Assembly (NCBI GenBank): GCA_035631775.1
Contig: DASQID010000382.1
Span: forward strand, 1 to 43,166
Origin: Acidobacteriota bacterium
GTDB lineage: Bacteria; Acidobacteriota; UBA6911
DNA length: 43,166 nucleotides
Direction of reading: 5' to 3'
Shown here: piece after piece, positions 13,272 to 40,143 of the stretch
Position numbering within the stretch: position 1 is the stretch's first letter
Layout of the letters: every line of letters starts with the position of its first letter
Translations under genes and position numbers: made by a program
Notes under the pieces: model-generated
Database searches by the model: none
What the model was told of the DNA's origin: nothing
What the model saw: the letters and a program-made list of their open reading frames with translations, nothing else

Positions 13272-13428
13272 TTCTGCTCCCTTGAATCATTGAAACGGCA
13301 AGGCGGCACTTGGTGACCCCATGTGCACGACTACGCCGCTCGGAGGGTTCCTCCCTTTCCAACTTCGATCCCGTCAGCTACCACCCGCAGAGCGGGTGGC
13401 TTGAGGACACCCCCCATGAAGAGCTTCA

Positions 13429-15265: not shown

Positions 15266-15566
15266 CTTAGGGCTGGCGCAAGAATAAACTCACATTTTGG
15301 CGCGAGCACCGTCGCGCCTGCGGCGCTCCTGGGGCGGGCAGATGCGAGGCGCCGCGACGCAGGCGATATCGGTGTATATCGTCGAGGAGCGGCAACGAAG
15401 CAGATGCCCGCCCGCCGCCGCGCCCCTTCGGGCTGCGCCCCGCAGGCCCGCTGGCGTTGTTGCTCGCTCCTTACATACCACCCCGGGTATGCTCGTCGCT
15501 CGCGCCTCGCCAACGGGCCTGAGGGCCTGCAGCAAAATGCCAAGTAATTCTTGCGCGTGCCCTAAG
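15266..15566 (+). mobile_element. MITE-like family A, full-length copy (~301 bp)
   Basis: Imperfect ~34-bp terminal inverted repeats: cttagggctggcgcaagaataaactcacattttgg ... gcaaaatgccaagtaattcttgcgcgtgccctaag. GC-rich interior with nested inverted repeats (cgcctgcggcgc/gcgccgcgacgcaggcg; cgatat..atatcg; ggcgggca/tgcccgcc). TA flanks both GGGC termini. Sits in the 480-bp gap between the TonB receptor and the TPR gene. Confidence 0.8.
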
Positions 15567-15597
15567 GGCTGGCGCAAGACGCCGATATCTACAGAAT

Positions 15598-19209: not shown

Positions 19210-19681
19210 TTAAATGCCTCCTTTCAATGCCTCCTTCTGATTGCGAGGGGTACGGGACGCCAGGAGCCAAGCCGCCGCCCTCTCTTTTAGAATTCTCCAG
19301 GCAGTCTGTGGAGATCCACCCTTCTTATGGAGTCCCCTGTCTGCAGCATTCGACCTAGCCTCTTTCGGATCTTCCTCTGTTCACGCGAGATCCGCATCCT
19401 TGGTTGAGCCAATACCTTGATAGGCAGTACCTATCTCAGTAAGTTGTAACGTTCGAAGAGGAGCGGATTGTTGGAGTACTCATATTCTCCCGAGCGATGA
19501 GAATACGGTATCGCGCTCTGTTGAAAATATAGGGTCATCCTAATGTCTGAAGATAGTCCTGTAAAGAAGATTCTCGAAAATTGATGGCATCCGCGTTGCC
19601 CAGTCGCCCAGCGGCAATTGCCTGGGATTATGCGGGATTTGGGATTGAGCAATAAGTACTTTGCGGTTCGGCCTCCCGTGC

Positions 19682-19697
19682 GCATATCATGATATGC
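19682..19697. promoter_or_regulatory. Perfect 16-bp palindrome GCATATCATGATATGC, candidate operator
   Basis: The sequence is its own reverse complement. It lies in the comparatively AT-rich divergent intergenic region, 26 bp upstream of the TPR ORF start (19723) and ~470 bp upstream of the TonB-receptor start. Confidence 0.35.
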
Positions 19698-19722
19698 TGT
19701 TTCATCTTGTCAGTAGCTATCT

Positions 19723-20757
19723 ATGCAAGATTCCCGTATCGCCCTCGAGAATTGCTTCCTGCGTGGCCCATTACCGGTGCGAGGGGTCATTTCCAGACCG
19801 CGCCGAGTTCCGGGTCGAATCGGCGAGTTCATCTGTACTGCGCTCTTCCTCCTCCTGCCCGGCGCCTCATTGCTTGCTCAGTCTTCTCGAAACCCGGCCT
19901 CACCCGGAAGCCTGAACTTAGGGGTGCAGGCTCTCTATGCCGGGGAGTATGCAAAGGCAGAGATGATCGCCAGGCAACAGTTACGAGATCATTCGCGCTC
20001 TGTTGACGCCTTGGTCTTGCTCGCGAGGGTACAGATGGCGCAGGGAAAATACCCGCTGGCCTTTGACACTCTTCGGAAGGCTCTCCGGCAATCTCCCGAC
20101 CATGTCGATGCGCTCTATTTTGCAGGCAAACTGGCTTCTGCGCTCTCACAGCTGGAATACCGACAACTAGTGCAATTAGCTCCCAGCTCGAGCCGTGTTC
20201 ATCAATTAATGGGGGATACCTATCAGTCAGATGGTGACCTGGAGAAGGCTCAGGCAGAGTACAGAACCGCACTCTCGCTTCAACCTGATTTGATCGAAGT
20301 GGAGCTGGAATTGGCGGAGACCCTGAGAACTCAAGGTCACTTCGAGGAAGCGCTCAAGCACTATACAGCCATACTGACTCGACTCCCCCGCCATTTTCCC
20401 TCGCTATTCGGGACAGGGCTATGTTTCAAGGGCTTGCAGGAGGTCGACAAGAGCATCAAGTTCTTTGGACTTGCTGCAGGCGCGGATCCTGGGGATGCCC
20501 CGAGCCGATTTGCTTTGGGGGCGGCGCTGATTCAAAAAGGGGAACCGGGCAAGGCGGTTGAGGTACTGAAATCCGCGGTTCGCCTGGATCCTTCCCTGCA
20601 GGGCGCGTATAGCCTGCTCGGCAGGGCTCTGCAGCTGACGGGGCAGCCTGAACAGGCCGCGCTGGCCTTTAAACAAGCCCAGCTCCTCGCAGACCAGCAG
20701 TTGCAGTCGCGCCAGGCGAGAATGAAGAAGGCACTCGATGCCCAAGCCAAGAGGTAG
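19723..20757 (+). CDS. Secreted TPR-repeat protein
   Basis: 344 aa. Hydrophobic signal FICTALFLLLPGASLLAQS. TPR units (KALRQSPDHVDALYFAG, TALSLQPDLIEVELELA, SAVRLDPSLQGAYSLLG). The exact start is uncertain. Confidence 0.8.
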   Translation: MQDSRIALENCFLRGPLPVRGVISRPRRVPGRIGEFICTALFLLLPGASLLAQSSRNPASPGSLNLGVQALYAGEYAKAEMIARQQLRDHSRSVDALVLLARVQMAQGKYPLAFDTLRKALRQSPDHVDALYFAGKLASALSQLEYRQLVQLAPSSSRVHQLMGDTYQSDGDLEKAQAEYRTALSLQPDLIEVELELAETLRTQGHFEEALKHYTAILTRLPRHFPSLFGTGLCFKGLQEVDKSIKFFGLAAGADPGDAPSRFALGAALIQKGEPGKAVEVLKSAVRLDPSLQGAYSLLGRALQLTGQPEQAALAFKQAQLLADQQLQSRQARMKKALDAQAKR

Positions 20758-21673
20758 CGTCGGGACAGGAACCGACGATCAAGTTCAGGATGACCTGCCA
20801 GGCGATCGACGGTCCTCCAAGCGGACCCTGCTCGATCTGAGGAAGAGTTGCTTGTCGCTGATTCTGCCCTTCCTTCTATTGCTCCAGACCGTCTTCGGAC
20901 AGGCCCAAACGCCGGCGTTGACCCCGAAAATGGAGGAGCAATTTGCCCGGGGAATCGAAGCGAGGAAAAACGGGGAGCTGGCAGCCGCGGAAAAGTTGTT
21001 CAAAGCGGTGCTCGATCAGGGGGGCAAGCTACCGTCTGTTTACGGTGCGCTGGGAATTGTTTATCAACTGGAAGGCGCTCACGATCAGGCACTGGATGCC
21101 TTCCTTGCAGCGGGGCGACTGGACCCGAAAGATCCGGTCCTCCATTCTTTGGCCGGTGGGAGTCTTTTGGCATTGGGGAAGTCCCGCGAAGCAGTAAAGG
21201 AGTTCGAACAGGCGGCGCGGCTGCAGCCGGAAACCCCCCTGTTCCACGAGCAGATTGCAGAAGGGTACCTCCGGATGTTGGATTATCCGGCAGCAATCGA
21301 TCAATACAGAAAGCTGCTGGAGCTCAAGCCCCAAAGCGCGGAGTACCATTACCACCTGGGTCATGCTTATCTCGCGTACTCCATCTCCTGCTTTGAGAGG
21401 ATAAGGAGCGTCAATGCCGATTCGGCCAGGCTCTTCCAGCAATTGGGGGACCAGTATCTGGCACAGGGGAGATTGGACAAGGCAATTGAGAATTACGAAA
21501 ATGCAAGGAAGGCTGACCCTGACATCCCCGAAGTTCATTTCATACTAGGGCAGTTCTATCTAAAGCAAGGCTATAAAGAGAAAGCACTGCAGGCGGCAAA
21601 CCAAGCGCTTGCATTGACGCCGGGCAACGCTGCGGCACTAGCGCTGAAGAAGAGCATTTTGGCGGGCAAATAA
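20738..21673 (+). CDS. Secreted TPR-repeat protein
   Basis: 311 aa from ATG 20738, overlapping the previous gene by 20 nt. An alternative TTG at 20852 follows GAGGAAG and gives a clean signal peptide (LSLILPFLLLLQTVFGQAQT). TPR units (AAGRLDPKDPVLH, QAARLQPETPLFH, KLLELKPQSAEYHYHLG, NARKADPDIPEVHFILG). Confidence 0.8.
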   Translation: MPKPRGSVGTGTDDQVQDDLPGDRRSSKRTLLDLRKSCLSLILPFLLLLQTVFGQAQTPALTPKMEEQFARGIEARKNGELAAAEKLFKAVLDQGGKLPSVYGALGIVYQLEGAHDQALDAFLAAGRLDPKDPVLHSLAGGSLLALGKSREAVKEFEQAARLQPETPLFHEQIAEGYLRMLDYPAAIDQYRKLLELKPQSAEYHYHLGHAYLAYSISCFERIRSVNADSARLFQQLGDQYLAQGRLDKAIENYENARKADPDIPEVHFILGQFYLKQGYKEKALQAANQALALTPGNAAALALKKSILAGK

Positions 21674-23544: not shown

Positions 23545-23781
23545 TTAAGGCGCCTCGGCTATCGCATAGATGAAATCTACATGGGAGTGCACCGCGCCAT
23601 CGAGCCCCTGAACTTTGGGGTTTGGTGACTCGCAGCCTTCCTGGCCTCGATTCTCTGCGGCAATGGACGGTTGGCGGATCCAAGTCTGCAGGCGCTTTAC
23701 CGCCTCGTCATGGCGCTTCGCAATCTCGGCGTAAACTGCATCTAGACCCGAGGTCGAATGTGGTCTCGCCAAGGCTGCCAT
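23545..23781 (-). pseudogene. N-terminal stub (~79 codons) of an M20-family metallopeptidase-like gene
   Basis: MAALARPHSTSGLDAVYAEIAKRHDEAVKRLQTWIRQPSIAAENRG... resembles the characteristic N-terminus of M20 dipeptidases (..L..WIRxPSISAxN..). The frame stops 10 bp before the LMW-PTP start, whereas full-length M20 enzymes are several-fold longer. The upstream part of ORF 23545-24081 is AT-rich and looks non-coding. Confidence 0.5.
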
Positions 23782-24266
23782 CGTTTCGCGGACAAAACTA
23801 CCTCCCCCGACAGCTGCTTGTTCTTCTTGGCATGTGTCGAGAATTAATCCTATTTTAGATTCGATACTGTATCTTACAGGTGCATTCGACGATGATAAAA
23901 GCAGTAATCCCCCCTGAAAACGGCATTCTCGGAGTTCACCTACCCATTCGCTGAGAACAACTCTCTCAGGCGCGGAATATTTGCTAGCTCGTGACCTTTG
24001 GACAACGACAAAGAGGTGTCTCTGGATTCGCGTAATCAAAGCGACTTCGTCCGATAAGTCCGATTTATTGCATTCCCACACACCTGTCTAAACATATATA
24101 CAAGGGTTAGTTGAAGCTATCCTGAACGTTGCGGAGTAACTGCCGGCCTATCCTAAGGCCTACGAGAAACCGCCGCGCCAGCCGAATCGCAGATGCTGAA
24201 AAAAATTCGCTCACATGCACAGGCAGGCCGTTAGATATCTTGGTGCGATTTCGAGGAGGTCCCCTC

Positions 24267-25472
24267 ATGACTGAAATCAGATTGAATATTCTTGACGCCG
24301 GCCGGGCAATCTGTGGCGCAATCCACGGCAGCGTGGCAGAAAGTGCGGTGGCGGGGTTATCCGCCGAACCGGAGACCATCGAGGAATTGCAGGACGCTCT
24401 AGCCAGATTCATCAAACCAGTCGACAACGGCCAACCCTTTGAAGCGTTTGACGCCGGCACCAACGACGAGCCGTGGGACGCCGGGATTATGTTCATCGAT
24501 CTGGCTGCGCATATCGTGGCCGCTGAATCGTCCTACTCTATGCCGTCAGCTGAAGGTCAGGTCCGGTACCATGATGGTGTCCAGGCGACCGACGTGTGGT
24601 TGCCGTACTACGCACCCGATGATTGGCTGTTTGTTGATTCTGTTGCTCAATACAAGGCTGTCTGTGAGCAGCGCCGTGCTGAACGCTCCGCCGCTCAGCC
24701 ACTCCGCGCCAGGCCTGTCCTCTATGGCACAGTTGTGGAATTCATCGTCAAACAGTGTCTTGAGGCCCGAGATGCAAAAACAGAAAATCCGATCGCAGAG
24801 ATTCATGCCAAATGGCTCATGACCCCGCGCCCTGATTTGCGCGGGAAGTCCCCGCGAGAGTTGATGTTAGAGAAATTCGACTTTATTGACCTTGACTTGC
24901 ATTCACGCGAGCTGCAGTGGAGCTTCGTCGGCAAGCCTGCGCCGTGCCTGTCGAAGAATTCCGCTGCGTACCGGTTCGCTGGCTTCGGCAGGCATGAAAT
25001 GGTGGTGTACTACGACCTGCTGCGGCACTTGCTCTCGGAATGTTGGAAGCGCCTGAGCGAAGGAAAAGACGTTCCAATAGCCGATGAGGTGGCGCGCCTT
25101 ACGCAAATCAAAGCTGACTGGCTGGAGTGTCCTGATCCGGACTTTGACGGCAGGAACCCCGCCTATATCCTCGAATGCGAGCGCAAGCGACTGCCACTCA
25201 TCGCCTCGCCTGAAGAAATGGTGATGGACGAGGATTGTCCCATGTGCCAGGCGATGGCCGAAGAATACACGCCGACGTTCTGCCACCTGGACGGCTGCAA
25301 TATGGATGACGATTTCCCGTTTTCCTTCTGCCGTACGCGGAGTGAATGGGAAGAGGAAGAGCGTGTCCGAAGGGAGTTTAGCGATGAGTTCAATAGGCGG
25401 TGGGAAGAGCGAGAGAGGAAGAATTTAGAAGAGGAGCCACGACCAATCAATGACGACACAGTGATTCACTAG
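24267..25472 (+). CDS. Hypothetical protein (401 aa) with C-terminal Cys cluster and highly charged tail
   Basis: ORF 24129-25472; the start is ATG 24267 (GAGGAGG 7 nt upstream, MTEIRLNILD). I recognise no family. C-terminal DEDCPMCQAMAEEYTPTFCHLDGC, then the acidic/basic tail SEWEEEERVRREFSDEFNRRWEERERKNLEEE. Confidence 0.75.
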   Translation: MTEIRLNILDAGRAICGAIHGSVAESAVAGLSAEPETIEELQDALARFIKPVDNGQPFEAFDAGTNDEPWDAGIMFIDLAAHIVAAESSYSMPSAEGQVRYHDGVQATDVWLPYYAPDDWLFVDSVAQYKAVCEQRRAERSAAQPLRARPVLYGTVVEFIVKQCLEARDAKTENPIAEIHAKWLMTPRPDLRGKSPRELMLEKFDFIDLDLHSRELQWSFVGKPAPCLSKNSAAYRFAGFGRHEMVVYYDLLRHLLSECWKRLSEGKDVPIADEVARLTQIKADWLECPDPDFDGRNPAYILECERKRLPLIASPEEMVMDEDCPMCQAMAEEYTPTFCHLDGCNMDDDFPFSFCRTRSEWEEEERVRREFSDEFNRRWEERERKNLEEEPRPINDDTVIH

Positions 25473-27579: not shown

Positions 27580-30024
27580 ATGACGTCATTCTGGCAAGAC
27601 GTTCGATACAGTCTGCGGATGATCGCGAAGTCGCCGGGGTATGCAACGATCGCGATCCTGACGCTTGCCCTGGGGATTGGCGCGAACACTACGATATTCA
27701 GTTGGATCAACTCGACATTGCTGAATCCGATCCCCGGACTGGCCAGCCCCAGCGAGGTCGTGGCGCTGACGCTGGGAAGAGGCGCAGATATTCCTTTCCC
27801 ATTTACCTATCCTGACTTCGAGGTGATGCGTGACGGCCAGCAAAGTTTTGTGGGAATCACGGCGGCCAATATCACTCCGATGAGCTTGACGGGCAAAGGC
27901 AAACCGGAGCGCGTCTGGGGCATGGTCGTGTCCGCGAATTACTTCGATGTTCTGGGCGTGCGTCCAGTCCCGGGCCGCGGGTTTCTGCCAGGTGAAGATG
28001 AGAAGCCGGGAGGCGCACCGGTGGCCGTGATCAGCCATCGGATGTGGCAGACACGCTTCGGCGCGAATCCGGAAATTGTGGGGCAGACGCTCGAGATCAA
28101 TCGGCATCGATACACGATTGTGGGCGTGACCCCGCCGGTGTTTCAAGGCAGTCAGACGGGGCTGCGATCAGAGATCTGGATTCCGATCATGATGGAAGAG
28201 CAGCTGATGCCGCAGGGTGACCTGATTCATGATCACCACTATTTCTGGCTTGGTGTTCTGGGGCGCTTGAAGCTGGGTGTCGCGCCGGAACAGGCGCAGG
28301 AGGAAATGACGCTGCGGCTGAAGCGGGAGGTGAAAAATTATCCTGAAGAGCACAGAGGTCACGACAGCGTTTCGGTGTCTCCACTATGGCGCAATCCGTT
28401 TGGCGCGAATGCGTTTCTCTCGACGCTTCTGCCGATGCTGATGTCAATCGCGGGGCTGGTACTGCTGCTGGCGTGCGCGAACGTGGCGAATCTGATGTTG
28501 GTGCGGTCGGTGGCGCGTCGGCGCGAGATTGCCGTTCGATTGTCTCTCGGTGCCAGCCGGTGGCGCCTGGTGCGGCAACTTCTGGTGGAAAGCCTCTGCC
28601 TCGCGCTGGCGGGAGGCGCGGTTGCGCTGTTGATCACCTTCTGGACGGCGGGAACTTTTCTAAAATTCCTGCCTGTTACGGATTTTCCGATCTCGCTCAG
28701 CATCCGGGCAGACCGTACAGTGCTGTTAGCCACGCTGGTGATCTCGGTGCTCACCGGGGTGATTTTCGGGATTTTGCCGGCACTGCGGTCTTCGAGCGAA
28801 GCGCCCGTGGTGGTGCTGAAGGAGGACACGGGGAGCGCATCAGGCGGGCTCCGGAAGGCGCGTCTAGCGAGCGGGTTGGTGGTGGCGCAGATTTCGCTGT
28901 CGCTGCTGCTGTTGATCTGCGCAGGATTGCTCATCCGCAGCTTCATGAGCGCGCAGGAAATCAACCCTGGAATCAACCCGCGTAACGTGCTGATCGCTTC
29001 GTACGATCTGTTTACAGCGGGATATTCGAATGAGAGCGGGGCAGAATTCGATCGCCAGCTCGTCACGAGACTGGAATCGCTGCCGGGAATTCAGTCTGTG
29101 GCCCTCTCCAGCCGCGTGCCGCTGGGATTCGGCGGCGGATCGACGAGTGTGAAACCGGAAGGCTACGAATCGCAGGCGCACGAATCTATGGAAACGCAGG
29201 TGGCCATCATTACACCGAATTACTTCAAGACCATGGAGCTTCCAATTGTGAAGGGGCGCGACTTCACGCTGCAGGACACGGCGAGGTCGCAGCGGGTGGT
29301 GATCGTCAGCGAAACCTTTGCAAATCGCTACTGGCCGAATCAGGAAGCAGTGGGCAAGCAGCTCAACTCCGACCTGACACACGAATGGTTTTCCGTGGTG
29401 GGTGTCGCCCGCGACAGCAAAGTGAACGGCTTGAATGAAAAGCCAACGCCATTCCTGTATCTGCCGCTGTACCAGGTGTACCGCGCCGCCATGATCGTCA
29501 CTGCGCGAACCACAGGAGATCCGCTCGCCTTCGGCAAAGCGGTCGAACAGACGTTTCATGAGCTAAATGCCGACCTCGTTGTGTTCGATGTGACTACGCT
29601 CGAATTGCGCGAGCAAATAGCCAGCTTTGGCCAACGCGTAGCGGGAACATTTGTGGGCGCTTTCGGGCTGCTCGCACTCGTTCTGGCAGCGGTGGGAATT
29701 TACGGTGTCACAGCCTACACCACGCGGCAGCGGACGCTTGAAATCGGGATCCGCATGGCGCTGGGCGCAGGCAAGCAGGACATTCTGCGGCTGGTGCTTG
29801 GGCATGGCTTGTTCTTGACCCTGCTTGGCGTAGGCTTGGGCCTGGGAGTCTCATTTGCACTGACGCGGTACCTGGGGAGCCTGCTGCTGGGAGTGACGAG
29901 CACCGACGCGCTGACGTTTTCGACCGTCGCGATCTTGCTCTGCGCCGTGGCTCTCTTCGCATGCTTCATCCCCGCGCGCCGTGCGATGCGTGTGGAGCCG
30001 ATGGCCGCGCTGCGCTACCAGTAG
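27580..30024 (+). CDS. ADOP-family (MacB/FtsX-like) duplicated ABC transporter permease, second paralog
   Basis: 814 aa. MTSFWQDVRYSLRMIAKSPGYATIAILTLALGIGANTTIFS. Two FtsX modules (LLLACANVANLMLVRSVARRREIAVRLSLGASRWRLVRQ and TRQRTLEIGIRMALGAGKQDILRLV). Ends ARRAMRVEPMAALRYQ. No intact PadR gene lies upstream. Confidence 0.9.
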   Translation: MTSFWQDVRYSLRMIAKSPGYATIAILTLALGIGANTTIFSWINSTLLNPIPGLASPSEVVALTLGRGADIPFPFTYPDFEVMRDGQQSFVGITAANITPMSLTGKGKPERVWGMVVSANYFDVLGVRPVPGRGFLPGEDEKPGGAPVAVISHRMWQTRFGANPEIVGQTLEINRHRYTIVGVTPPVFQGSQTGLRSEIWIPIMMEEQLMPQGDLIHDHHYFWLGVLGRLKLGVAPEQAQEEMTLRLKREVKNYPEEHRGHDSVSVSPLWRNPFGANAFLSTLLPMLMSIAGLVLLLACANVANLMLVRSVARRREIAVRLSLGASRWRLVRQLLVESLCLALAGGAVALLITFWTAGTFLKFLPVTDFPISLSIRADRTVLLATLVISVLTGVIFGILPALRSSSEAPVVVLKEDTGSASGGLRKARLASGLVVAQISLSLLLLICAGLLIRSFMSAQEINPGINPRNVLIASYDLFTAGYSNESGAEFDRQLVTRLESLPGIQSVALSSRVPLGFGGGSTSVKPEGYESQAHESMETQVAIITPNYFKTMELPIVKGRDFTLQDTARSQRVVIVSETFANRYWPNQEAVGKQLNSDLTHEWFSVVGVARDSKVNGLNEKPTPFLYLPLYQVYRAAMIVTARTTGDPLAFGKAVEQTFHELNADLVVFDVTTLELREQIASFGQRVAGTFVGAFGLLALVLAAVGIYGVTAYTTRQRTLEIGIRMALGAGKQDILRLVLGHGLFLTLLGVGLGLGVSFALTRYLGSLLLGVTSTDALTFSTVAILLCAVALFACFIPARRAMRVEPMAALRYQ

Positions 30025-30262: not shown

Positions 30263-32284
30263 ATGTCATTCGATCAGGCAAATCAGGTGTGGGAAGGTGT
30301 GAAATTAGTTGACAGGCCTGCCCCCACAGCCTGGTTTCCGAATGCGGATACGCGTTCTCGTTCACAGCTTGCGAAATTCATACAGTCTTGCGGCATTGAC
30401 TCCTACCATGCACTCTACGAAAGATCCATCGCGGATGTGCCCTGGTTTACCGGCCAGGTTTTAGACTTCCTCGGAATACGATTTGACCCTCCTTACCAGA
30501 AGGTCCTGGATCTCTCACGCGGGATTCAGTGGCCCCTCTGGTGCACACAGGGGGGCCTGAACATCACCCGGTGCTGTATGGATCGCCATGCGCGAACCAC
30601 GCTCGGGACTTCTCCTGCAGTGGTGTGGGAGGGGGAAGAAGGGGTCTCGAAAGTCTGGACTTATTGCGAGCTGTTGGAGTCGGTCGAGAGGTGTGCCGCC
30701 GGGCTGCGTGCCATCGGTCTGGCGCGGGGTGACAGGGTTGGACTTCATCTGCCCATGATGCCCGAAACCGTGGCCGCATTGCTGGCTGTTGCCAGAATCG
30801 GCGCTGTAGCAGTCCCTCTTTTTTCCGGATATGGCCCGGCCGCCATTGAATCGCGACTCAGGGACGTGGGCGCCAAGGGGATCGTCACCTGCGATGCCTT
30901 TACGCGGCGCGGTGTCGTTACCGCTGCGAAGGAAATCGTAGACGAGGCGTTGGAGCGGTGTCCGAGCATCCGGAGCGTTGTCGTGGTGCCCCGCTTGGGA
31001 GTCGCTGTCCCGATGCAGCGCCGCCGTGACATCGGATGGTACGACCTGCTCGAGCTGGGAGCCGCCGCCGGTGCGGAGGCGAGGGCCGCCGAGTCAACCG
31101 GCGCGGAAGATCCGCTGATTATCCTCTACAGCTCAGGAACGACCGGGCAGCCGAAAGGGATCGTTCATTCGCATTGTGGCTTTCCTGTAAAGGCAGCTCA
31201 GGATATGGCGTTCGGCACTGACGTGAGGCCCGGTGATCGTGTCACATGGATCACCGATCTCGGATGGATGATGGGGCCTTGGCTCATCTATGGAGCAACT
31301 CTCCTCGGTGCCACCATCGCGATCTACGATGGTGCACCCGACTATCCTGCGCCGGACCGGCTCTGGGCCTTCTGCGCCGCTCATCGGATCGGCATTCTTG
31401 GCGTCTCGCCGACTTTGGCACGCATCATGGCCGCCCACGGCGTCGAGCCGAGGACCGGTCATGATCTGTCCGAACTGAGAATTCTTGCCTCGACCGGCGA
31501 GCCGTGGGATCCCGAAACATGGTCGTGGTTGTTTGAAAAGCTCGGCGCAAATCTCCCGATCATCAACTATTCGGGCGGCACTGAGATTTCAGGTGGGATC
31601 CTGATGGGAAATCCGCTCTTGCCTATAAAGCCCTGCTCGTTTTCAGGACCTTGCCCCGGCATCGCTGCAGATGTCGTTGATGAGTCGGGACGTTCCATCC
31701 GGGGTCAGGTGGGTGAACTCATTATCCGTCGGCCGTGGATCGGGATGGCCCGGGGGTTTTGGGGAGATCCGCAGCGCTATCTTAATACCTATTGGTCGCG
31801 CTGGCCGGATGTATGGCACCACGGAGACTGGGCACGCGTCGATGGCGACGGGTATTGGCACATCCTCGGGCGAAGCGATGACACCATCAAAGTGGCAGGC
31901 AGGCGCGTCGGGCCTGCCGAGATCGAGGCCATATTGCTGTCCCATCACGGCGTGGCGGAAGCCGCCGTCGTGGGCATACCCGACGAAATCAAGGGTAACT
32001 CGCCAGTGGCTTTTTGCGTGCCTGCCCCGGGGACGGCAACCGGTCCGGCCTTCAGCGACGAACTGCGCCGACGGGTAGCAGATGCGCTCGGCAAGCCAAT
32101 GCGTCCCGACAAGGTCCTGTTCGTTCCTGCGTTGCCTCGAACGCGAAACTCAAAGATCATGCGGCGCGTTATTCGCGGCGCCTACCTGAACCAGGACGTA
32201 GGAAACATTGCGGCACTCGAGAATCCCGAGTCTGTCGAGGCGATACGTCTACTTGCGCCGGATCGCGCACCTGGGAAGGAGTGA
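30263..32284 (+). CDS. AMP-dependent synthetase/ligase of the acetyl-/acetoacetyl-CoA synthetase type
   Basis: 673 aa. ACS-type N-terminal region, AMP-binding motif [16 protein letters not shown], then [39 protein letters not shown] and the C-terminal lysine context [11 protein letters not shown]. The stop is 6 nt before hppD. Confidence 0.85.
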
Positions 32285-32290
32285 CTGACG

Positions 32291-33379
32291 ATGGAAGAAA
32301 ACCCTCTCGGACTCCGTGGAATTCATCACATCGAGTTCTGTGTCGGCAATGCGAAACAGGCATGCTACTACTATCGTAATGCGTTGGGCTTCTCTCAGCG
32401 CGCTTATGCGGGTCTGGAAACCGGCGAACGCACGCGCACTTCGTATGTGCTTCAACAGGGAGAAGCCACGTTTGTCCTTACCACCCCTCTTCGCCCCGAC
32501 GACATGATGAGCGAGCACATCAGAAGGCATGGCGACGGCGTGCGCGACATTGCATTCGAGGTCTCAGACGCCGATCTGGCCTTCGCGCGAGCCGTGGCCC
32601 GCGGAGCACAACCAGCCGTGGAGCCGCGAACCCTGGAGGATCGATGGGGCAAGGTCCGGCACGCGGCCATTTGCACCTACGGCGATACCATCCACTCGTT
32701 TATCTCGACCAACGGCTACGACGGTCCCTTCCTGCCCGGCTTTGATGCCGCGCAACAGTCCGGCAAGGGTGCCGGCCTGCTGCGGATCGATCACCTGGTT
32801 GGGAATGTGGAACTGGGAAAAATGAACTGCTGGGCCGAGTGGTACAGCCGGGTCTGCGGCTTTCGTCGATACATGAGCTTCGACGACAAGGACATCTCGA
32901 CCGAGTACAGCGCCCTGATGAGCATCGTGATGTCCAATGACTCGACAGCAATCAAGATGCCCATCAACGAGCCCGCCCCAGGCCTCCGCAAGAGCCAGAT
33001 CGAGGAATACCTCGAGTTTTACCAGGGAGCCGGAGTGCAGCATATCGCGCTGATGACTGCGAACATCATCGATACCGTCGAAACCTTAGGGGCCAACGGA
33101 ATCGAGTTCCTCGAAGTGCCGCCCAGTTACTACGAAGCTCTCCGCAAGCGCGTGGGCGACATTGACGAGGATGTCCAAAGGATACGTAATCTCGGGATCC
33201 TGGTGGACCGGGACGACGAGGGTTACCTGCTGCAGATCTTTACCAAGCCCGCCGAAGACCGCCCTACTCTGTTCTTCGAGATCATCCAGCGGAAGGGCAG
33301 CCGAGGCTTCGGTAAGGGGAATTTCAAGGCATTGTTTGAGGCTATCGAACGCGAGCAGGGGCGGCGGGGTAACCTGTAA
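32291..33379 (+). CDS. hppD: 4-hydroxyphenylpyruvate dioxygenase
   Basis: 362 aa. [34 protein letters not shown], and the diagnostic C-terminus [48 protein letters not shown]. Confidence 0.92.
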
Positions 33380-33397
33380 AGAACTGAGGTGCGGCAG

Positions 33398-34561
33398 ATG
33401 CCGATCTATCATCACGCAGGCCAGGTGCCACGAAAGCGCCACATGGTATTCCGTCAGCCCGATGGTGCCCTCTACGCGGAAGAACTCATTGGGAACAAGG
33501 GGTTCACCGGCCCATCCTCATTGCTTTACCACCTGAACCGTCCGACTTCCGTAATCAGCGTCAGGCATTTTCGCGAATTGAAATGGGATCCGGAGCCGGA
33601 TCCGACCGCCAGACACCGCCACTTCAGGACGCACCAACTCCCGCAGGTTCCAAGCCCAACCCTGGATCGGATTCCGATCATGAGCAACCAAGATGTGACT
33701 TTGTTCTTCGTGCAGCCGCAGCGGGAGGATGAACACTTTTATCGCAGCGGTCAAGGTGACGAATTGATATTTGTGAGCAACGGGACCGGCGTCCTCGAAA
33801 CGCAAATGGGCGACCTGCCCTTCCGTCGAGGTGATTATCTCCTCGTCCCCAGAGGCATCCTGCACCGCTTCAAATTCACTTCCCACCCCCTACGGTTTCT
33901 CGTGATCGAAAGCGCGGGCTATCTTCGCACGCCGGCGCGTTACCGGAACGAACACGGACAGTTGCTCGAGATCAGTCCTTACTGCGAACGAGACATTCGC
34001 GCTCCGGAGAATGTGACCGCCCGCGACCAAAAGGGGGAGTTCCGCATCCTTGTCAAGAAAAACAACTGTCTGACCGAAATGATGCTGGATCACCACCCCT
34101 TCGATGTCGTCGGATGGGACGGATATTACTACCCGTGGGCTCTGAATATTGAGGACTTCGAGCCCAGGGTGGGGCGTTTCCATTTGCCGCCGCCCGTGCA
34201 TCAAACCTTCGAGGGTGATGGATTTGTGGTCTGCTCGTTTTGTCCCCGCCCCTTCGACTTTGACCCCGGCGCCATCCCCGCGCCGTACGCCCATTCGAAT
34301 GTCATGGCGGACGAAGTGATTTACTACGCAAACTCGGAGTTCATGAGTCGGAAGGGGATTGAATTGGGTTCGATTACCCTACACCCCGACGGGCTGCCGC
34401 ACGGGCCGCACCCCGGCCGGGCGGAGGAATCCATCGGCAAGAAATCGACAGGCGAACTCGCGGTTATGATCGATACCTATCGGTCGCTCCAGGTCGGAAG
34501 GGCGGCCCTGGACGTTGAGGACAAGGAGTACTGCCTTTCCTGGGGGGAGGGGGCCAATTGA
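33398..34561 (+). CDS. hmgA: Homogentisate 1,2-dioxygenase (short ~390-aa type)
   Basis: The ORF track starts at GTG 33389; ATG 33398 has TGAGGTG 6 nt upstream. MPIYHHAGQVPRKRHMVFRQPDGALYAEELIGNKGFTGPSSLLYH matches the short-form HGD N-terminus. Cupin core and ...HPDGLPHGPHPG are present. Confidence 0.9.
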   Translation: MPIYHHAGQVPRKRHMVFRQPDGALYAEELIGNKGFTGPSSLLYHLNRPTSVISVRHFRELKWDPEPDPTARHRHFRTHQLPQVPSPTLDRIPIMSNQDVTLFFVQPQREDEHFYRSGQGDELIFVSNGTGVLETQMGDLPFRRGDYLLVPRGILHRFKFTSHPLRFLVIESAGYLRTPARYRNEHGQLLEISPYCERDIRAPENVTARDQKGEFRILVKKNNCLTEMMLDHHPFDVVGWDGYYYPWALNIEDFEPRVGRFHLPPPVHQTFEGDGFVVCSFCPRPFDFDPGAIPAPYAHSNVMADEVIYYANSEFMSRKGIELGSITLHPDGLPHGPHPGRAEESIGKKSTGELAVMIDTYRSLQVGRAALDVEDKEYCLSWGEGAN

Positions 34562-35460
34562 ACTCGATGCGCATCCTCTTGGACTCGTCGATAGACTATG
34601 CAGGGCTGTTCCCACCTGCCGGCCTGAGTATGACCGACGCCGTCGGCAACTACGCAGCCTCTCAACGCAGTTCACAGTCGTGGGCACTAGGCCGGTTTGT
34701 TCTACCGGTGTCGCGCCTGGATGAATTGGAACTCGCAGCAAGAGAAGTCTTGCCCCGAGGCACGAGAGCGGTACCCTGGCGGTTGAGTGCGGTCGCCGGC
34801 TTCGAGAACCAGGCGGATCTGGGGCTCATTCCGGCCTTCAACAAGCGACACTCGGCGAATGCAGGCGACGGCGCAGCCGTCATCGACGCTGTCGAACTGA
34901 AGGTGAGGAGCGCTGAGGAAATCCGTAGCATCACGGATGTCACCGCGGGGAGCTTCGCAACGTATCTCGAGGTCCCACTCTCTGATGGTACTCCTGCGCT
35001 CATTCTGTCCATCGCCGAGGCCGGTGTCCGGGCCAAGGTGCGTACCGGCGGGCCGACCCCGGATCAGTTCCCCGCACCCATGGAATTGGCCAGGTTTATC
35101 CTCAGTTGCACCCAAGCCCGTGTCCCTTTCAAGGCCACAGCCGGGCTGCATCATCCGTTCCGCGCCGTCCATCACCTGAACGACAATCCCGCGAGTCCTT
35201 CAGCAACGATGCATGGCTTCCTGAACGTCTTGCTGGCCGCCTGTTTTGCCCGTACGGGTTCGGGCATCGACATCGTCGAGGCGGTGCTGAAAGACCAGGC
35301 TGCCGATTCCTTCAGATTCGGTGCGGATGGGGTTTCGTGGCGCACGCACAGGCTGACCAATGATCATTTGCTTGGTGCGAGGCGGGAATCGGCTCAATCT
35401 TTCGGCTCCTGTTCCTTTCATGAGCCCATCGGCGATCTCAGGTCTCTCAATCTGTTATGA
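34558..35460 (+). CDS. Hypothetical protein, embedded in the homogentisate operon (candidate missing pathway step)
   Basis: 300 aa. TTG 34558 (GGAGGGGG 5 nt upstream) overlaps the hmgA stop; an alternative ATG is at 34567. The stop overlaps the fahA start (ATGA 35457-35460). No recognisable family. Conserved-looking segments: DYAGLFPPAGL, RAKVRTGGPTPDQFP, FKATAGLHHPFR. Confidence 0.8.
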   Translation: MNSMRILLDSSIDYAGLFPPAGLSMTDAVGNYAASQRSSQSWALGRFVLPVSRLDELELAAREVLPRGTRAVPWRLSAVAGFENQADLGLIPAFNKRHSANAGDGAAVIDAVELKVRSAEEIRSITDVTAGSFATYLEVPLSDGTPALILSIAEAGVRAKVRTGGPTPDQFPAPMELARFILSCTQARVPFKATAGLHHPFRAVHHLNDNPASPSATMHGFLNVLLAACFARTGSGIDIVEAVLKDQAADSFRFGADGVSWRTHRLTNDHLLGARRESAQSFGSCSFHEPIGDLRSLNLL

Positions 35461-36773
35461 ACAGCCTCATCAACGAAACCCATGATCCCGATCTCAAGAG
35501 CCTGATTGAGGCAGCGAACGATCCGGAGTCGGATTTTCCGATCCAGAATCTCCCACTCGGTGTTTTCAAGCCCCGGGGAACCGAAAGCCCGCCTCATGTC
35601 GGAGTAGCCATTGGGGATCTCATTCTGGATTTGGCCCTCTGCGGGAACGGGGGGCTGCTGGATGGCCTCTCCAGCCAACTGATTAGCGCATGTGCGGCCG
35701 ATTCGCTCAAAGCGCTGATGTCCCTTGGGCCGGAATCCTGGTCTTCCCTGCGCAGACGGGTCAGCGGTCTTCTCCGGGCCGGGGATGAGCGGAGCCACAG
35801 AGGCCGAATCCATGCCTCGCTCGTGCCCATGAGCGAGGCGGAGATGATGATGCCCGCCGTCATCGGCGACTACACCGATTTTTACGCGTCGATTTATCAC
35901 GCGCAGAACGTCGGCAGCTTGTTCCGACCGGATAATCCCTTGTTGCCAAACTACAAGCATGTCCCAATCGGATACCACGGCCGCGCCTCATCGATCGTAA
36001 TCAGCGGCACCCCGGTGCGCAGGCCGTGCGGGCAGATCGAGGGTGCGGATTCCGTTCCTGAATTCAGCCCCACCCGCATGCTGGATTATGAACTGGAAGT
36101 GGGCTTTTTCATCGGACCAGGCAATTCCTTGGGCGTCCCAATTGCGATTTCGGATGCAGAGGCACACCTCTTCGGCCTGTGTCTGGTAAACGACTGGTCG
36201 GCCCGCGATATCCAAAAGTGGGAGTACCAGCCGCTCGGCCCGTTCCTGGGTAAGAGTTTTGCAACGACGATCTCACCGTGGATCGTTTCTGTTGAGGCTC
36301 TTGCGCCCTACCGTGTGCCGGCGTTTGCGAGGTCTCCGGGTGACCCCACCCCGTTGCCCTACTTGAAGGATGAGCAGGGCCCGGTACGCGGCGGCATCGA
36401 TCTCAGAGTGGAGGCGCTGCTTATCTCTCAACAGATGCGGTCGCAGCGTTGCAGACCTATGCTCCTCAGCCGGGGTAATCTCCGGGACTTGTATTGGACG
36501 CCGAGTCAACTCCTGACCCATCATGCGAGCAACGGCTGTAACCTCCGGCCGGGTGATCTTCTGGCGAGCGGAACCATATCCGGCGCGTCCGAGGACGCCC
36601 GCGGGTGTCTCCTGGAATTGACCAGACGCGGCGCCCGCCCTCTCGAGTTGCCCGGTGGCGAGACTAGGCGGTTCTTGGAGAACGGTGACGAGGTCATCTT
36701 CCGCGCCTTTGCGGAGCGAGAGGGTTTTGTCAGGATCGGCCTGGGTGAGTGTCGTGGAATGGTGATTGGATAA
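35457..36773 (+). CDS. fahA: Fumarylacetoacetase (eukaryote-type FAH)
   Basis: 438 aa. N-terminal FAH_N-type region (FPIQNLPLGVF), DYTDFYASIYHAQNVGSLFRPDNPLLPNYKHVPIGYHGRASSIVISGTPVRRPCGQ, YELEVGFFIG, NDWSARDIQKWEYQPLGPF, GDLLASGT. Confidence 0.92.
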   Translation: MNSLINETHDPDLKSLIEAANDPESDFPIQNLPLGVFKPRGTESPPHVGVAIGDLILDLALCGNGGLLDGLSSQLISACAADSLKALMSLGPESWSSLRRRVSGLLRAGDERSHRGRIHASLVPMSEAEMMMPAVIGDYTDFYASIYHAQNVGSLFRPDNPLLPNYKHVPIGYHGRASSIVISGTPVRRPCGQIEGADSVPEFSPTRMLDYELEVGFFIGPGNSLGVPIAISDAEAHLFGLCLVNDWSARDIQKWEYQPLGPFLGKSFATTISPWIVSVEALAPYRVPAFARSPGDPTPLPYLKDEQGPVRGGIDLRVEALLISQQMRSQRCRPMLLSRGNLRDLYWTPSQLLTHHASNGCNLRPGDLLASGTISGASEDARGCLLELTRRGARPLELPGGETRRFLENGDEVIFRAFAEREGFVRIGLGECRGMVIG

Positions 36774-36838
36774 TGATGATCCTGGGTACTTCATGGTCTT
36801 CTTCATGAATGGAATTATTCAGCTTGGGAGGTGGATCT

Positions 36839-37756
36839 ATGACTAAGACGTTCACTGGGCAAATAGGGGAGGAGACTCGCGCTCGTCTCCAGTCAAGCTC
36901 TTACCCCGCGGCAGACGTGGACAGGTATTGCCGCCTGGTTGAGCGGATCGAGCGGGAAATCCTGCCACACGAAGTCATCGTCAACAATCGGTTCACAAAG
37001 TGGTTTGAGCAAGGCAGTTTCGATCTGGCCGACTTGCGGCATTTCGTGACCCAGTTCTCCGTATTCTCGAACTTCTTTATCGTTGCACAGCTGCTGAAGA
37101 CGATAAATGCTCCAACTTTGGAGGCGATGCATGCGTCGAAGGAGATCCTGATGAACGAGCTCGGAGTCTCGTTCCACAAAACCCGCGGACACGCGACAGA
37201 TGACGGGAAGGCAACTGCGGACGTGGAGAAGATTTTCGAGTTCGAGGGGACAGTGGATGGGTCGGTATTCCGTTTCTCCGCAGCTCACTTTGAATGGCTT
37301 CTGCAAATGGGTGACCATTTGGGACTAAAATTCAAGGACCTGGGCAAGAGGAGGCACGGAACGAAAAGCACCTTGTTCTTCACGGACGAACTTGCCAGGA
37401 TCTATGGCTCCGAGGACACCAGCGTCGCCCTCGGGGCGAGCTTCGCGGTAGAAAACTGGGCAGCGGCCGGCTTCTGGAAAGAGCTGATCCGCGGCCTTCA
37501 GATTTTTAGGAAACGGGAGCTGCCCGGGTTGCCTCTTGGTTTCTTCACCTGGCACGACATGGTTGAGGACCAACACGCTCAACATACATGGGACGAGCTG
37601 GAAGAAGAGTTCTTTGCCAGCGAAGAGGTCGACGAAGACAAGTTCATCGAAGGTGGCGTCGGGATGTTGGATGGAGTGTTGGTTTTCTGGGATGGCCTCA
37701 ACTCAGACCGGCTCAGCCGGGAAACCGGTGTCGGACCGACGCAAATCCATACTTAG
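36839..37756 (+). CDS. Heme-oxygenase-like fold protein (iron-containing redox enzyme / TenA-PqqC-CADD-like), function unknown
   Basis: ORF 36809-37756; the start is ATG 36839 (GGGAGGTGG upstream, MTKTF). NNRFTKWFEQGSFDLADLRHFVTQFSVFSNFFIVAQL...ILMNELGV, and later FAVENWAA and WHDMVEDQHAQH (E..H type metal-ligand-like spacing). The stop codon TAG lies at the junction with a family-A element. Confidence 0.7.
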   Translation: MTKTFTGQIGEETRARLQSSSYPAADVDRYCRLVERIEREILPHEVIVNNRFTKWFEQGSFDLADLRHFVTQFSVFSNFFIVAQLLKTINAPTLEAMHASKEILMNELGVSFHKTRGHATDDGKATADVEKIFEFEGTVDGSVFRFSAAHFEWLLQMGDHLGLKFKDLGKRRHGTKSTLFFTDELARIYGSEDTSVALGASFAVENWAAAGFWKELIRGLQIFRKRELPGLPLGFFTWHDMVEDQHAQHTWDELEEEFFASEEVDEDKFIEGGVGMLDGVLVFWDGLNSDRLSRETGVGPTQIHT

Positions 37757-38081: not shown

Positions 38082-38897
38082 ATGAGAGTCGCATTGATTT
38101 TCAGCCTGTTGCTGCTCGGGTCCGTGGACGCTATCCCTTCACAGCGTAAGTCTTCCGGACTGGAGGTTCTAGTAAACGGTGGCCCCGTTCCGAAGTATCA
38201 CTACCGGGGAACGACCTATATCGAGGCTCTCAAAGGACAGGAATACGCGATTCGCATCACCAATCCATCCGGAACGCGAGTCGCGGTGGCCTTGTCGGTG
38301 GACGGCCTTAACACAATCGATGCCCGCCACACCGAGGCTCGCCTCGGCCACAAATGGGTTCTGGAACCTTACGATTCGGTTGTCATAAGCGGCTGGCAGA
38401 CTGGCGCTCAGCACGCGCGCCGCTTCTTCTTTACTACGGAGGATCGGTCGTACGGCGCCTGGCTGGGGGAGACCGAAAACCTCGGAGTTATCAGCGCTGC
38501 ATTTTTCCGGGAGAAGATCCCAAGAGTGCAGCGGCCCGATCCCCAACGACCACTGGTTCCGCAACCCGGCAATTCCCAATCTCCCCGAAGGGAACTGGAC
38601 CGGGCTGGTGATGCCGGCACCTCGGATCGGCAGTCCAAACTCGGAGAGGCAACTGCAGCGCCAACCTCTGAAGCAGAGTATGCCGCCACCGGCATCGGCG
38701 ACCGCATACGTCACGCGGTTCAGTGGATCCGGATGGACCTGGAAGAACAGCCGTTCTCCGTCATCGATCTGCGTTACGAGTTCCGGCCGGCTCTGGTAAG
38801 GCTCGGAGTTTTTCTGCCGCAAGTTACAGATGGTCCGTTGACCCGCCGCGAGAGAGCCAGGGGATTTCATGAACCCACATACTGCCCTGAGCCTTGA
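38082..38897 (+). CDS. Secreted hypothetical protein
   Basis: 271 aa, GGAGG 7 nt upstream. Signal peptide MRVALIFSLLLLGSVDA. Beta-rich N-terminal domain (LEVLVNGGPVPKYHYRGTTYIEALKGQEYAIRITNPSGTRVAVALSVDGLNTID), a low-complexity P/Q/S linker, and a second small domain. I do not recognise the family. Preferred over the antisense 273-aa ORF on composition, RBS and signal peptide. Confidence 0.7.
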   Translation: MRVALIFSLLLLGSVDAIPSQRKSSGLEVLVNGGPVPKYHYRGTTYIEALKGQEYAIRITNPSGTRVAVALSVDGLNTIDARHTEARLGHKWVLEPYDSVVISGWQTGAQHARRFFFTTEDRSYGAWLGETENLGVISAAFFREKIPRVQRPDPQRPLVPQPGNSQSPRRELDRAGDAGTSDRQSKLGEATAAPTSEAEYAATGIGDRIRHAVQWIRMDLEEQPFSVIDLRYEFRPALVRLGVFLPQVTDGPLTRRERARGFHEPTYCPEP

Positions 38898-38944
38898 CGT
38901 AGCCGGAGCCTTTGCAGCCCCGGAAAAATCGTAATACGAACCCT

Positions 38945-38996
38945 GGCGCCTTTGCTTCTTAGCGGTGGCCTTTTTAAAAGCCACCGCCAAGGCGCC
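38945..38996. terminator. Two-tier GC hairpin between convergent genes (possible bidirectional terminator)
   Basis: GGCGCCTT(38945-52)/AAGGCGCC(38989-96) and GCGGTGGC(38962-69)/GCCACCGC(38980-87) around the loop CTTTTTAAAA. Located 48 bp after the stop of 38082-38897 and ~200 bp after the stop of the minus-strand gene. There is no classical U-tract outside the stem. Confidence 0.35.
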
Positions 38997-39198: not shown

Positions 39199-40143
39199 CT
39201 ACGCCAGCTGCACACCAGGATGAGAGCACGCCACCCTGTCGTGGAACGCCAGCACCGGCTCCAGGTCGGGGTGAATCTTGCCTCTCCCGATCAGCTTCAC
39301 GAAGCTGCACGCAGTGAACCGTTGCGAGATCGCGCTGTAACGCTGTTCCCATTGTCTATAGATTGCTTCCTGGCGCCCAGCCGGCCACGGGTACTGAAAC
39401 GGAGGCCGATCGGCCCCGCATCGCCACGGTTTGGCCGTCAACCGCGCACGGAAGCATTCCTGTTGTCTGCACAGCCTCATGTAGAGAGGGTCTGAACCCA
39501 GGCTTCTCATCAGTTCTGCCGTATCCGCGCTGGCAGGATCAAAGATCTGATTGGTAATCAGGCACCGGAGCCCCGCGAAAGTGCGGTAGACCCTGAGATC
39601 CAGGTCCGGGTACCGAGCTGCGGTCTCCTCGATCCTGCGCAGTTGACGGTCTGCCGGAGAGGGCTGAGGCGCGGCCGCAGGTGAGGTGCCCACGCCGGGC
39701 ATTTGTTGCTTTGTACCAAACAAACTCTTGATCCCGGAGATCAGACCGTCGGCAAGGCCGGCCAACTCGGGCATCTGCGGCGCGTTTTGCGGATTCTCCG
39801 TTCGTGCGCCCTCATCGAAATCTATGTCGATGAACATTGCATAAGCGGAGTTCAACACCAAAGCCCCATACCGATTGCGTGTGATGACACCGACCTCTTT
39901 TCGGTCGCCGGCACTGATCACTTCTTTGATCTCCTCCCTGACCGGACGCTCACCGTAGGAGTACCGATCAAGGGCCCAGCCATTCTGGACCTTCCGCACC
40001 AACTCCTGCGCCCGTTCGCGGGCAAGCCGCTTCGCTTCCTCGGCGCTATTGTCTGACCATTGCCAGCAGGAAAGCCGGTACGCCTTACCACCCTGACCTT
40101 GCACTGACTGAGTCTCATTCGCCCAAAATTTCGGAATCTTCAT
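39199..40143 (-). CDS. Hypothetical protein (314 aa)
   Basis: GGGAGG 6 nt upstream of ATG 40143. Balanced composition. N-terminal domain ending in YGALVLNSAYAMFIDIDFDEG, a low-complexity P/A/Q linker, and a C-terminal domain with RVYRTFAGLRCLI and CRQQECFRARLTAKPWRC. I do not recognise the family. Confidence 0.7.
   Translation of the reverse strand: MKIPKFWANETQSVQGQGGKAYRLSCWQWSDNSAEEAKRLARERAQELVRKVQNGWALDRYSYGERPVREEIKEVISAGDRKEVGVITRNRYGALVLNSAYAMFIDIDFDEGARTENPQNAPQMPELAGLADGLISGIKSLFGTKQQMPGVGTSPAAAPQPSPADRQLRRIEETAARYPDLDLRVYRTFAGLRCLITNQIFDPASADTAELMRSLGSDPLYMRLCRQQECFRARLTAKPWRCGADRPPFQYPWPAGRQEAIYRQWEQRYSAISQRFTACSFVKLIGRGKIHPDLEPVLAFHDRVACSHPGVQLA

Follow-up and report, generated by a model that had tools for sequence, protein, structure and literature searches.

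A predicted TIM-barrel protein encoded beside fumarylacetoacetase is a candidate glutathione-independent maleylacetoacetate isomerase

The homogentisate gene cluster

The stretch of DNA described here (contig DASQID010000382.1 of assembly GCA_035631775.1, from an Acidobacteriota bacterium; 43,166 nt, referred to below in its full length as the window) carries a single run of five genes on its plus strand, recognised from the open reading frame (ORF) list and the sequence. These encode an acetyl-CoA synthetase (ACS)-like ligase, 4-hydroxyphenylpyruvate dioxygenase (HPPD; hppD), a short-type homogentisate 1,2-dioxygenase (HGD; hmgA), a 300-amino-acid protein at 34558-35460 which we name ORFX, and fumarylacetoacetase (FAH; fahA) (Table 1). 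The intergenic spacing along the run is 6, 9, -4 and -4 nt, in agreement with the first-pass annotation, which was made from the sequence alone and had described the last four genes as co-directional and essentially gap-free.

ORFX is a real gene and not a chance reading frame. Its product is identical to the annotated VE398_11710, a hypothetical protein of an Acidobacteriota metagenome-assembled genome, and its GC content at third codon positions (0.68) is in line with that of the neighbouring genes. The overlaps with the hmgA stop and the fahA start that had been noted earlier are confirmed: a TTG at 34558 sits 6 nt past a GGAGG and overlaps the TGA of hmgA (34559-34561), while the ORFX stop and the fahA ATG share the ATGA at 35457-35460. 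Of the two start codons considered, TTG 34558 is likely the correct one rather than ATG 34567, because close homologues start with MNSIRILL at the same position. A scan of the operon for promoters and terminators gave nothing above chance.

Because the cluster encodes all steps of the homogentisate pathway but the isomerase, and because ORFX is the sole unassigned gene between HGD and FAH, we regard it as the strongest candidate for the isomerase that the pathway lacks, one independent of glutathione. The first-pass annotation had proposed either such an isomerase, unrelated to the glutathione S-transferases (GSTs), or another pathway accessory, and the comparative evidence (linkage to FAH in 80 of 83 loci and absence of maiA nearby) supports that proposal. 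We favour, with moderate confidence, the reading that in lineages where the zeta-class GST MaiA is not in use, the cis-trans isomerisation of maleylacetoacetate falls to ORFX, a non-GST enzyme.

Table 1. Genes of the homogentisate cluster and sequence motifs of ORFX
Feature	Position	Strand	Evidence
ACS-family AMP-forming CoA ligase, head of cluster	30263-32284	+	AMP-binding domains (Pfam)
hppD, 4-hydroxyphenylpyruvate dioxygenase	32291-33379	+	TIGR01263, 456.8 bits
hmgA, short-type (cupin) homogentisate 1,2-dioxygenase	33389-34561	+	HgmA_N 47.8 bits and Cupin_2; TIGR01015 only 58.7 bits
Shine-Dalgarno-like GGAGG (34547-34551) and TTG start (34558-34560)	34547-34560	+	Sequence
ORFX, 300-aa uncharacterised protein of predicted TIM-barrel fold, candidate maleylacetoacetate isomerase	34558-35460	+	ORF, conserved family, FAH linkage
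Motif D13-Y-A-G-L-F-P-P, end of strand beta1	34594-34617	+	D13, A15, F18, P19, P20 invariant (86 + 12 sequences)
Motif A-K160-V-R162-T-G-G, beta6 (158-162) and loop after it	35032-35052	+	K160, R162, G164 invariant; G165 in 85/86
Motif F-K192-A-T194-A-G-L-H198-H-P, beta7 (191-194) and loop after it	35128-35157	+	K192, T194, A195, G196, L197, H198 invariant
Motif F-G-S-C285-S, end of beta8 (279-284)	35401-35415	+	G283, C285 invariant; S284, S286 nearly invariant
fahA, canonical two-domain fumarylacetoacetase	35457-36773	+	TIGR01266 517 bits (cut-off 375); FAA_hydrolase_N and FAA_hydrolase

Gene neighbourhoods and the distribution of MaiA

A scan of one genome per GTDB species yielded at least 597 loci with ORFX, 80 of which were kept; annotated plasmid and chromid records and one metagenome contig were added to these, giving 86 loci at counting. 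Three are uninformative, the contig ending right after ORFX, which leaves 83. FAH lies downstream of ORFX on the same strand in 80 of these 83, directly adjacent (gap ≤300 nt) in 73 and 300-3000 nt away in seven, and in about 25 loci the two genes overlap by 4 nt. When all ORFs of the 83 loci were clustered, only FAH, HGD, HPPD and the ACS-like ligase proved recurrent.

The ORFX-FAH pair occurs in at least nine phyla. Its hosts belong to the Acidobacteriota, Gemmatimonadota, Bacteroidota (Chitinophagales, Ignavibacteria), Planctomycetota, Latescibacteria, Cyanobacteriota, Chloroflexota (Herpetosiphonaceae), Bacillota (Priestia) and Actinomycetota (Streptomyces, Rhodococcus, Pseudonocardia, Nonomuraea, Tsukamurella), and the pair is also present in an annotated Kovacikia record. 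A further locus, L011, comes from a record titled Candidatus Saccharimonadales and has ORFX-FAH together with HGD and HPPD genes 61-67% identical to acidobacterial ones; it is probably a mis-binned contig.

Several of these loci are compact catabolic units. Priestia p-LAD4 has a complete tyrosine catabolic operon (hppD-ORFX-fahA-aminotransferase-HGD-amino acid permease), in which ORFX is the sole unnamed gene. The Rhodococcus plasmid pNit carries HGD-ORFX-fahA beside genes for acetoacetate utilisation (CoA transferase A/B, thiolase), and in Herpetosiphonaceae a bare two-gene ORFX-FAH unit is found. In Pseudonocardia pLS1-1 (L085) the three-gene module HGD-ORFX-fahA lies between insertion sequence (IS) elements, IS5 and IS1380 transposases bracketing it at 4777-12178 of this mobilizable plasmid, an arrangement which suggests that the module moves as a unit. 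Tsukamurella tyrosinosolvens has an Lrp gene followed by hppD-HGD-ORFX-fahA, with ORFX overlapping HGD and fahA by 4 nt each; its ORFX has diverged to the point where no query but the Rhodococcus protein finds it (E=4e-5), and synteny is therefore kept to the limit of sequence detection. The isomerase is likewise the only missing step in the Priestia, Tsukamurella and Pseudonocardia clusters.

The HGD of the window has about 390 residues and is of the short cupin type, scoring about 58 bits on TIGR01015, for which the cut-off is 511. This short type is common to Acidobacteriota, Bacillota and Actinomycetota (L081 12530-13684; L083 7791-8993; L089 5379-6572) and adjoins ORFX in Priestia, Rhodococcus and Tsukamurella. 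RefSeq names it inconsistently, as "cupin domain-containing protein", "HGD domain-containing" or "homogentisate 1,2-dioxygenase". A long canonical HmgA (704 bits on TIGR01015) accompanies ORFX in about 26 loci, and the short type is found with ORFX as well. On the question of whether ORFX co-occurs with short-type hmgA and fahA, which the first-pass annotation had raised, the association is with fahA and not specifically with short-type hmgA.

The hydrolases that partner ORFX are true TIGR01266 fumarylacetoacetases, scoring 444-636 bits. In a crude neighbour-joining tree the proteobacterial FAHs nest within the diversity of the ORFX-linked ones; the hydrolase is therefore of the same kind in both settings and forms no special subfamily. 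These results bear on an alternative in which ORFX would act after hydrolysis, the hydrolase cleaving maleylacetoacetate to maleate and acetoacetate and ORFX turning the maleate into fumarate or malate. Gene order cannot tell such a route from isomerisation before hydrolysis, and the invariant cysteine of ORFX recalls the cysteine-based maleate isomerases. We nevertheless judge it very unlikely, given that the partner hydrolases are fumarylacetoacetase equivalogs and that proteobacterial FAHs acting after MaiA fall among them in the tree, so that a trans substrate is most likely. For some Bacillus strains, a route to maleate through a maleylacetoacetate hydrolase is attributed to Crawford (1976), as cited in PMC4457819; the Bacillus cereus-group operon for which the hydrolase route was considered contains only hppD, a predicted fumarylacetoacetate hydrolase and hmgA (PMC4457819). 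ORFX itself has no similarity to maleate isomerases of the Asp/Glu racemase type in Pfam or Foldseek searches.

MaiA (HmgC, GSTZ1; EC 5.2.1.2; TIGR01262) performs the one step of the pathway for which ORFX clusters have no gene, and ORFX is proposed to catalyse the same overall reaction. As a zeta-GST probe we used the human GSTZ1 sequence, validated by its score of 306.6 bits on TIGR01262 (cut-off 171). The earlier observation that no ORF in the window looks GST-like holds, both in a Pfam scan of 27 of the approximately 35 gene-like ORFs and in searches of all six frames with the probe (tblastn and phmmer), which found no maiA. Nor was maiA found with the probe in 1.13 Mb around the 83 ORFX genes, a figure that covers the flanks of the loci. 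The lone weak GST match, in L026 (E=0.04, 24% identity), is not a zeta GST.

In the plasmid collection FAH is present in 252 records, maiA in 237 and ORFX in 24. FAH-bearing records of Streptomyces (11/11) and Priestia (6/6) all carry ORFX as well. No ORFX homologue was found on any proteobacterial record of this collection, all 24 ORFX records being non-proteobacterial, and the 40 maiA records listed among the 237 are all proteobacterial. In four of six proteobacterial records checked, maiA is beside or close to fahA (Sphingobium, Paraburkholderia, Paracoccus AK26 and Acinetobacter). By coordinates or annotation it directly adjoins fahA in two Sphingobium records, one Paraburkholderia record, Paracoccus AK26 and an Acinetobacter plasmid, and in Microbulbifer it is one gene away. 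The position of maiA near fahA in some proteobacteria is thus like that of ORFX elsewhere. Had ORFX displaced MaiA as a non-orthologous gene, such a distribution would be expected; it is consistent with that reading without amounting to proof.

MaiA has the thioredoxin-like plus helical fold of the GSTs whereas ORFX is a predicted TIM barrel, with no relationship in sequence or fold, and ORFX has no GST_N, GST_C or TIGR01262 match (Pfam at E≤1, NCBIfam). MaiA acts by reversible addition of the glutathione thiolate at C2 of the substrate, followed by rotation and elimination. Unlike MaiA, which has glutathione as its catalytic nucleophile, ORFX probably needs no lineage-specific low-molecular-weight thiol, because the same active site is kept unchanged in mycothiol-, bacillithiol- and glutathione-producing lineages.

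Protein family and predicted structure

The first-pass annotation could assign no motif to ORFX, and database searches agree with it. The single protein matched no Pfam family (2025) at E≤1, no credible NCBIfam family (June 2026), where the best match was 12.7 bits to a phosphoglycolate phosphatase and was taken as noise, and no PDB entry by sequence. A profile of 40 ORFX sequences gave nothing usable against Pfam, NCBIfam or PDB. A nitroreductase match of this kind (E=0.22) was treated as noise, and the JGI label "nitroreductase" on homologue P0106 is probably the same noise.

The family is nonetheless large. More than 7985 homologues are found in a 90%-clustered database, all of them unnamed or "hypothetical", the label that RefSeq also gives to family members; a profile search of a 50%-identity library returned 5718 clusters at E≤1e-3, of which 2704 reach E≤1e-30. 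Literature searches turned up neither a description of this family nor a cloned maleylacetoacetate isomerase that works without a thiol. Pathway and reaction were known before; new for the isomerase step are the candidate protein family, its predicted fold and its probable cofactor independence.

Conservation was assessed from two alignments, one of 86 sequences (down to 29% identity) and a separate one of the 12 most distant members. Nine polar residues are invariant in both (D13, E113, E138, K160, R162, K192, T194, H198 and C285), and N223, R275 and S286, invariant in the smaller set, are each kept in 85 of 86 sequences in the larger. Among the cysteines only C285 is invariant; C184 is nearly so (80/86). 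The segments KVRTGG and FKATAGLHHP, which had been singled out as conserved-looking and possibly part of an active site, are indeed the family's most conserved motifs, located at beta6 and beta7. The family can be defined by a length of about 280-320 residues, the motifs D-[YD]-A-G-x-F-P-P, K-x-R-T-G-G, K-x-T-A-G-L-H and G-[ST]-C-S, and a position upstream of a TIGR01266 fahA; all four motifs are present in the window ORFX, with fahA following at a 4-nt overlap.

Two homologues have additional domains. In P0262 (512 aa) an ORFX domain (1-295) is joined to a FAA_hydrolase_N domain (388-486), and in P0126 (545 aa) an Rce1-like CAAX protease domain stands ahead of ORFX. The former could be a fusion of ORFX to FAH, or could result from read-through where the stop and start codons overlap; both are single cases and could be read-through artefacts.

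AlphaFold2, given an alignment of 40 sequences, predicts a (beta/alpha)8 TIM barrel with high confidence (predicted local distance difference test 93.8, predicted TM score 0.92) and a small extra sheet between beta7 and beta8. In this model the conserved residues lie at or just after the C-terminal ends of the strands: D13 on beta1, E113 on beta4, E138 on beta5, K160 and R162 on beta6, K192, T194 and H198 on beta7, and C285 on beta8; N223 and R275 are likewise placed at C-terminal strand ends. The conserved polar residues as modelled occupy the classical catalytic face of a TIM barrel. Foldseek comparison with the PDB returned weak matches to generic barrels, the top one being deoxyribose-phosphate aldolase (DERA) at E 7.8e-4 with a TM score of 0.44 relative to the query and 0.57 relative to the target, followed by transaldolase, KDO8P synthase and others; it revealed no close solved structural relative. 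Profile and structure searches, the routes that the first-pass annotation had pointed to, thus lead to a confidently predicted barrel and to no named family.

The best structural matches, to the DeoC/LacD (PF01791) and transaldolase families, raise an alternative in which ORFX would be a class I (Schiff-base) aldolase-like lyase, with a role unrelated to the isomerisation (for example making or breaking a carbon-carbon bond in some side branch of aromatic degradation) and lying near fahA through co-regulation only. Like ORFX, DeoC/LacD proteins are (beta/alpha)8 barrels. In this class the Schiff-base lysine is on beta6, with a second lysine on beta7. By strand position ORFX resembles E. coli DERA, its invariant lysines being located on beta6 and on beta7 and its acidic residues on beta1 and on beta4 (DERA/ORFX: D16/D13 on beta1, D102/E113 on beta4, K167/K160 on beta6, K201/K192 on beta7 and FGAS/FGSCS on beta8). 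By eye, the short motifs K-x-x-T-G, F-K-x-x-x-G and F-G-x-S come in the same order in both proteins, and the sole sequence alignment that pairs K160 with K167 is weak (E=0.12). Against a common origin, hhalign comparison with E. coli DeoC and with a DERA alignment, whole or in trimmed halves, gave a probability of about 1% or less, this alignment being shallow (homologues all ≥80% identical) and adding little profile depth.

Several further observations make the aldolase alternative highly improbable in our view. The structural matches are weak and generic (E of about 1e-3, TM score 0.44 relative to the query). ORFX has no match to PF01791 or to any other Pfam aldolase family, and differs from DeoC/LacD in an insertion of about 45 residues between beta7 and beta8, in its genomic context and in its presumed reaction. 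No aldol substrate is apparent in the two-gene ORFX-FAH unit, and co-regulation alone would hardly account for an adjacency that persists between Actinomycetota and Acidobacteriota at 29% identity. Since the profile-profile comparisons were never significant, we treat the resemblance to DERA as a lead and not as homology.

Candidate reaction, remaining genes and significance

If ORFX is the isomerase, it would act between homogentisate dioxygenase and fumarylacetoacetase, its arginines and lysines binding the two carboxylates and the 4,6-diketone of maleylacetoacetate. A transient enzyme adduct would remove the double-bond character of C2=C3 and permit rotation, a part played in MaiA by the glutathione thiolate. 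This adduct most likely involves the invariant Cys285, which may add at C2 in place of the thiol, much as a cysteine does in maleate isomerases that need no cofactor; alternatives are an iminium formed by Lys160 at C4 and a metal coordinated by E113, E138 and H198. With such tight coupling to fahA, the reactive product would pass directly to the hydrolase.

There are precedents for parts of this scheme. In the gentisate pathway, the mycothiol-dependent maleylpyruvate isomerase (MDMPI) of Corynebacterium glutamicum, which has a DinB-like fold, and the L-cysteine-dependent BagL of Paenibacillus are maleylpyruvate isomerases that use alternative thiols. Isomerases of this type were treated by Shen et al. 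(2005), as cited in PMC3937715. They set a precedent for the replacement, in Gram-positive bacteria, of a GST-type maleyl isomerase by an unrelated protein, and differ from ORFX in their substrate (maleylpyruvate), in their folds and in the need for a thiol cofactor. ORFX has no DinB or MDMPI_N match (Pfam, E≤1), its predicted fold being an alpha/beta barrel. Maleate cis-trans isomerase, of the Asp/Glu racemase superfamily, is cofactor-independent and acts on a maleyl C=C bond with an enzyme cysteine as nucleophile. This is the cysteine chemistry proposed for Cys285 of ORFX; the fold and substrate are different, there are two catalytic cysteines as opposed to the single invariant one in ORFX, and ORFX, a predicted TIM barrel, has no Pfam match to that superfamily.

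A number of points weigh against assigning ORFX as the isomerase. Gene neighbourhood shows a functional link to FAH and does not identify the reaction, and the chemistry proposed above is drawn from residue invariance. We know of no cis-trans isomerase with the ORFX fold. Three of the 83 loci have ORFX in unrelated surroundings, where the neighbours show no alternative recurrent context. ORFX is also present in cyanobacteria, which produce glutathione. Ralstonia and Paracoccus marcusii have hmgA directly next to fahA, without maiA or ORFX in between, and a gene in the ORFX position is therefore not obligatory. Finally, a plasmid of Streptomyces sp. NBC_00525 has an MDMPI-family, that is, mycothiol-dependent, gene 4 kb upstream of ORFX-fahA (L082 4982-5638), in a separate transcription unit, which could supply the isomerase in that strain.

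Some of these points would suit an accessory function other than isomerisation, ORFX being a keto-enol tautomerase, a remover of side products such as maleylacetone or succinylacetoacetate, or a structural or channelling partner of FAH, with isomerisation then non-enzymatic or carried out by another protein. The conserved link is to FAH specifically, whether HGD and HPPD are nearby or not; in cyanobacteria both glutathione and MaiA could be available; the operons of Ralstonia and Paracoccus function with hmgA-fahA as the sole pair at the locus; and the Streptomyces plasmid has its mycothiol-type gene near ORFX. We hold this alternative to be rather unlikely. With about 11 invariant polar residues on the catalytic face of its predicted TIM barrel, ORFX looks like an enzyme more than a scaffold, and no other reaction is known to be needed between HGD and FAH, whereas the isomerase is needed and without a gene. 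ORFX is moreover absent from the proteobacterial FAH records found, in which MaiA is present, and this fits a replacement better than a function which every user of FAH requires.

The ligase at the head of the cluster scores 549 bits against a cut-off of 657 on the acetate-CoA ligase model and 446 against 639 on the acetoacetate-CoA ligase model, and homologues with 59-64% identity are located upstream of hppD in three other loci (L014, L043 and L074). Its role may be to activate acetoacetate set free by FAH, which would make it an acetoacetate-CoA ligase. On the other side, 35 nt 3' of fahA, is a 315-aa ORF (36809-37756, +) with a weak Haem_oxygenas_2 (iron-containing redox enzyme) match (E=0.01); it is not conserved with the module, no copy having been found beside it in any of the 80 genome loci searched.

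Elsewhere in the window, two long ORFs overlap on opposite strands (38082-38897, +, and 38169-38990, -), the former with a sub-threshold DUF7918 match (24.9 bits, cut-off 27). Two large MacB-like/FtsX permeases, typical of Acidobacteriota, are encoded at 576-3290 (+; MacB_PCD and FtsX) and 27580-30024 (+), in keeping with the assignment of the window to a metagenome-assembled genome of that phylum. The region 10399-21673 holds four TPR-repeat proteins, an FG-GAP/ASPIC (UnbV) protein and a 1203-aa outer-membrane barrel (CarboxypepD_reg and OMP_b-brl_4), all unrelated to ORFX. Gene-like ORFs with no Pfam family are found at 23545-24081 (-; 178 aa), 24129-25472 (+; 447 aa, with only a sub-threshold Xre_MbcA_ParS_C match) and 39199-40143 (-; 314 aa).

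The homogentisate route is the central catabolic pathway for tyrosine and phenylalanine and controls the formation of pyomelanin. Hagedorn and Chapman are said to have described, in 1985, a glutathione-independent maleylacetoacetate isomerase activity in Gram-positive bacteria. The wider proposal, to which we give about even credence, is that ORFX founds a new family of TIM-barrel, cofactor-independent C=C cis-trans isomerases, which would be the main bacterial solution outside the Proteobacteria, with thousands of members in soil phyla, and would include the gene for that Gram-positive activity. In bacteria lacking glutathione the isomerase step has had no assigned gene; this is explicit for Bacillus anthracis, in which no maleylacetoacetate isomerase gene was identifiable and the fate of maleylacetoacetate was unclear (PMC4457819), so that the step is an acknowledged gap in Gram-positive bacteria. 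Were ORFX the isomerase, it would close this gap in the metabolism of Actinomycetota, Bacillota, Acidobacteriota, Gemmatimonadota, Bacteroidota, Chloroflexota and others, and more than 5700 sequence clusters now called "hypothetical protein" would gain a function, improving metabolic reconstructions from soil metagenomes. ORFX would also represent a clean case of non-orthologous gene displacement and a new catalytic solution for double-bond isomerisation on a TIM-barrel scaffold, and might perhaps provide a thiol-independent biocatalyst, or a target in tyrosine-degrading actinomycetes.

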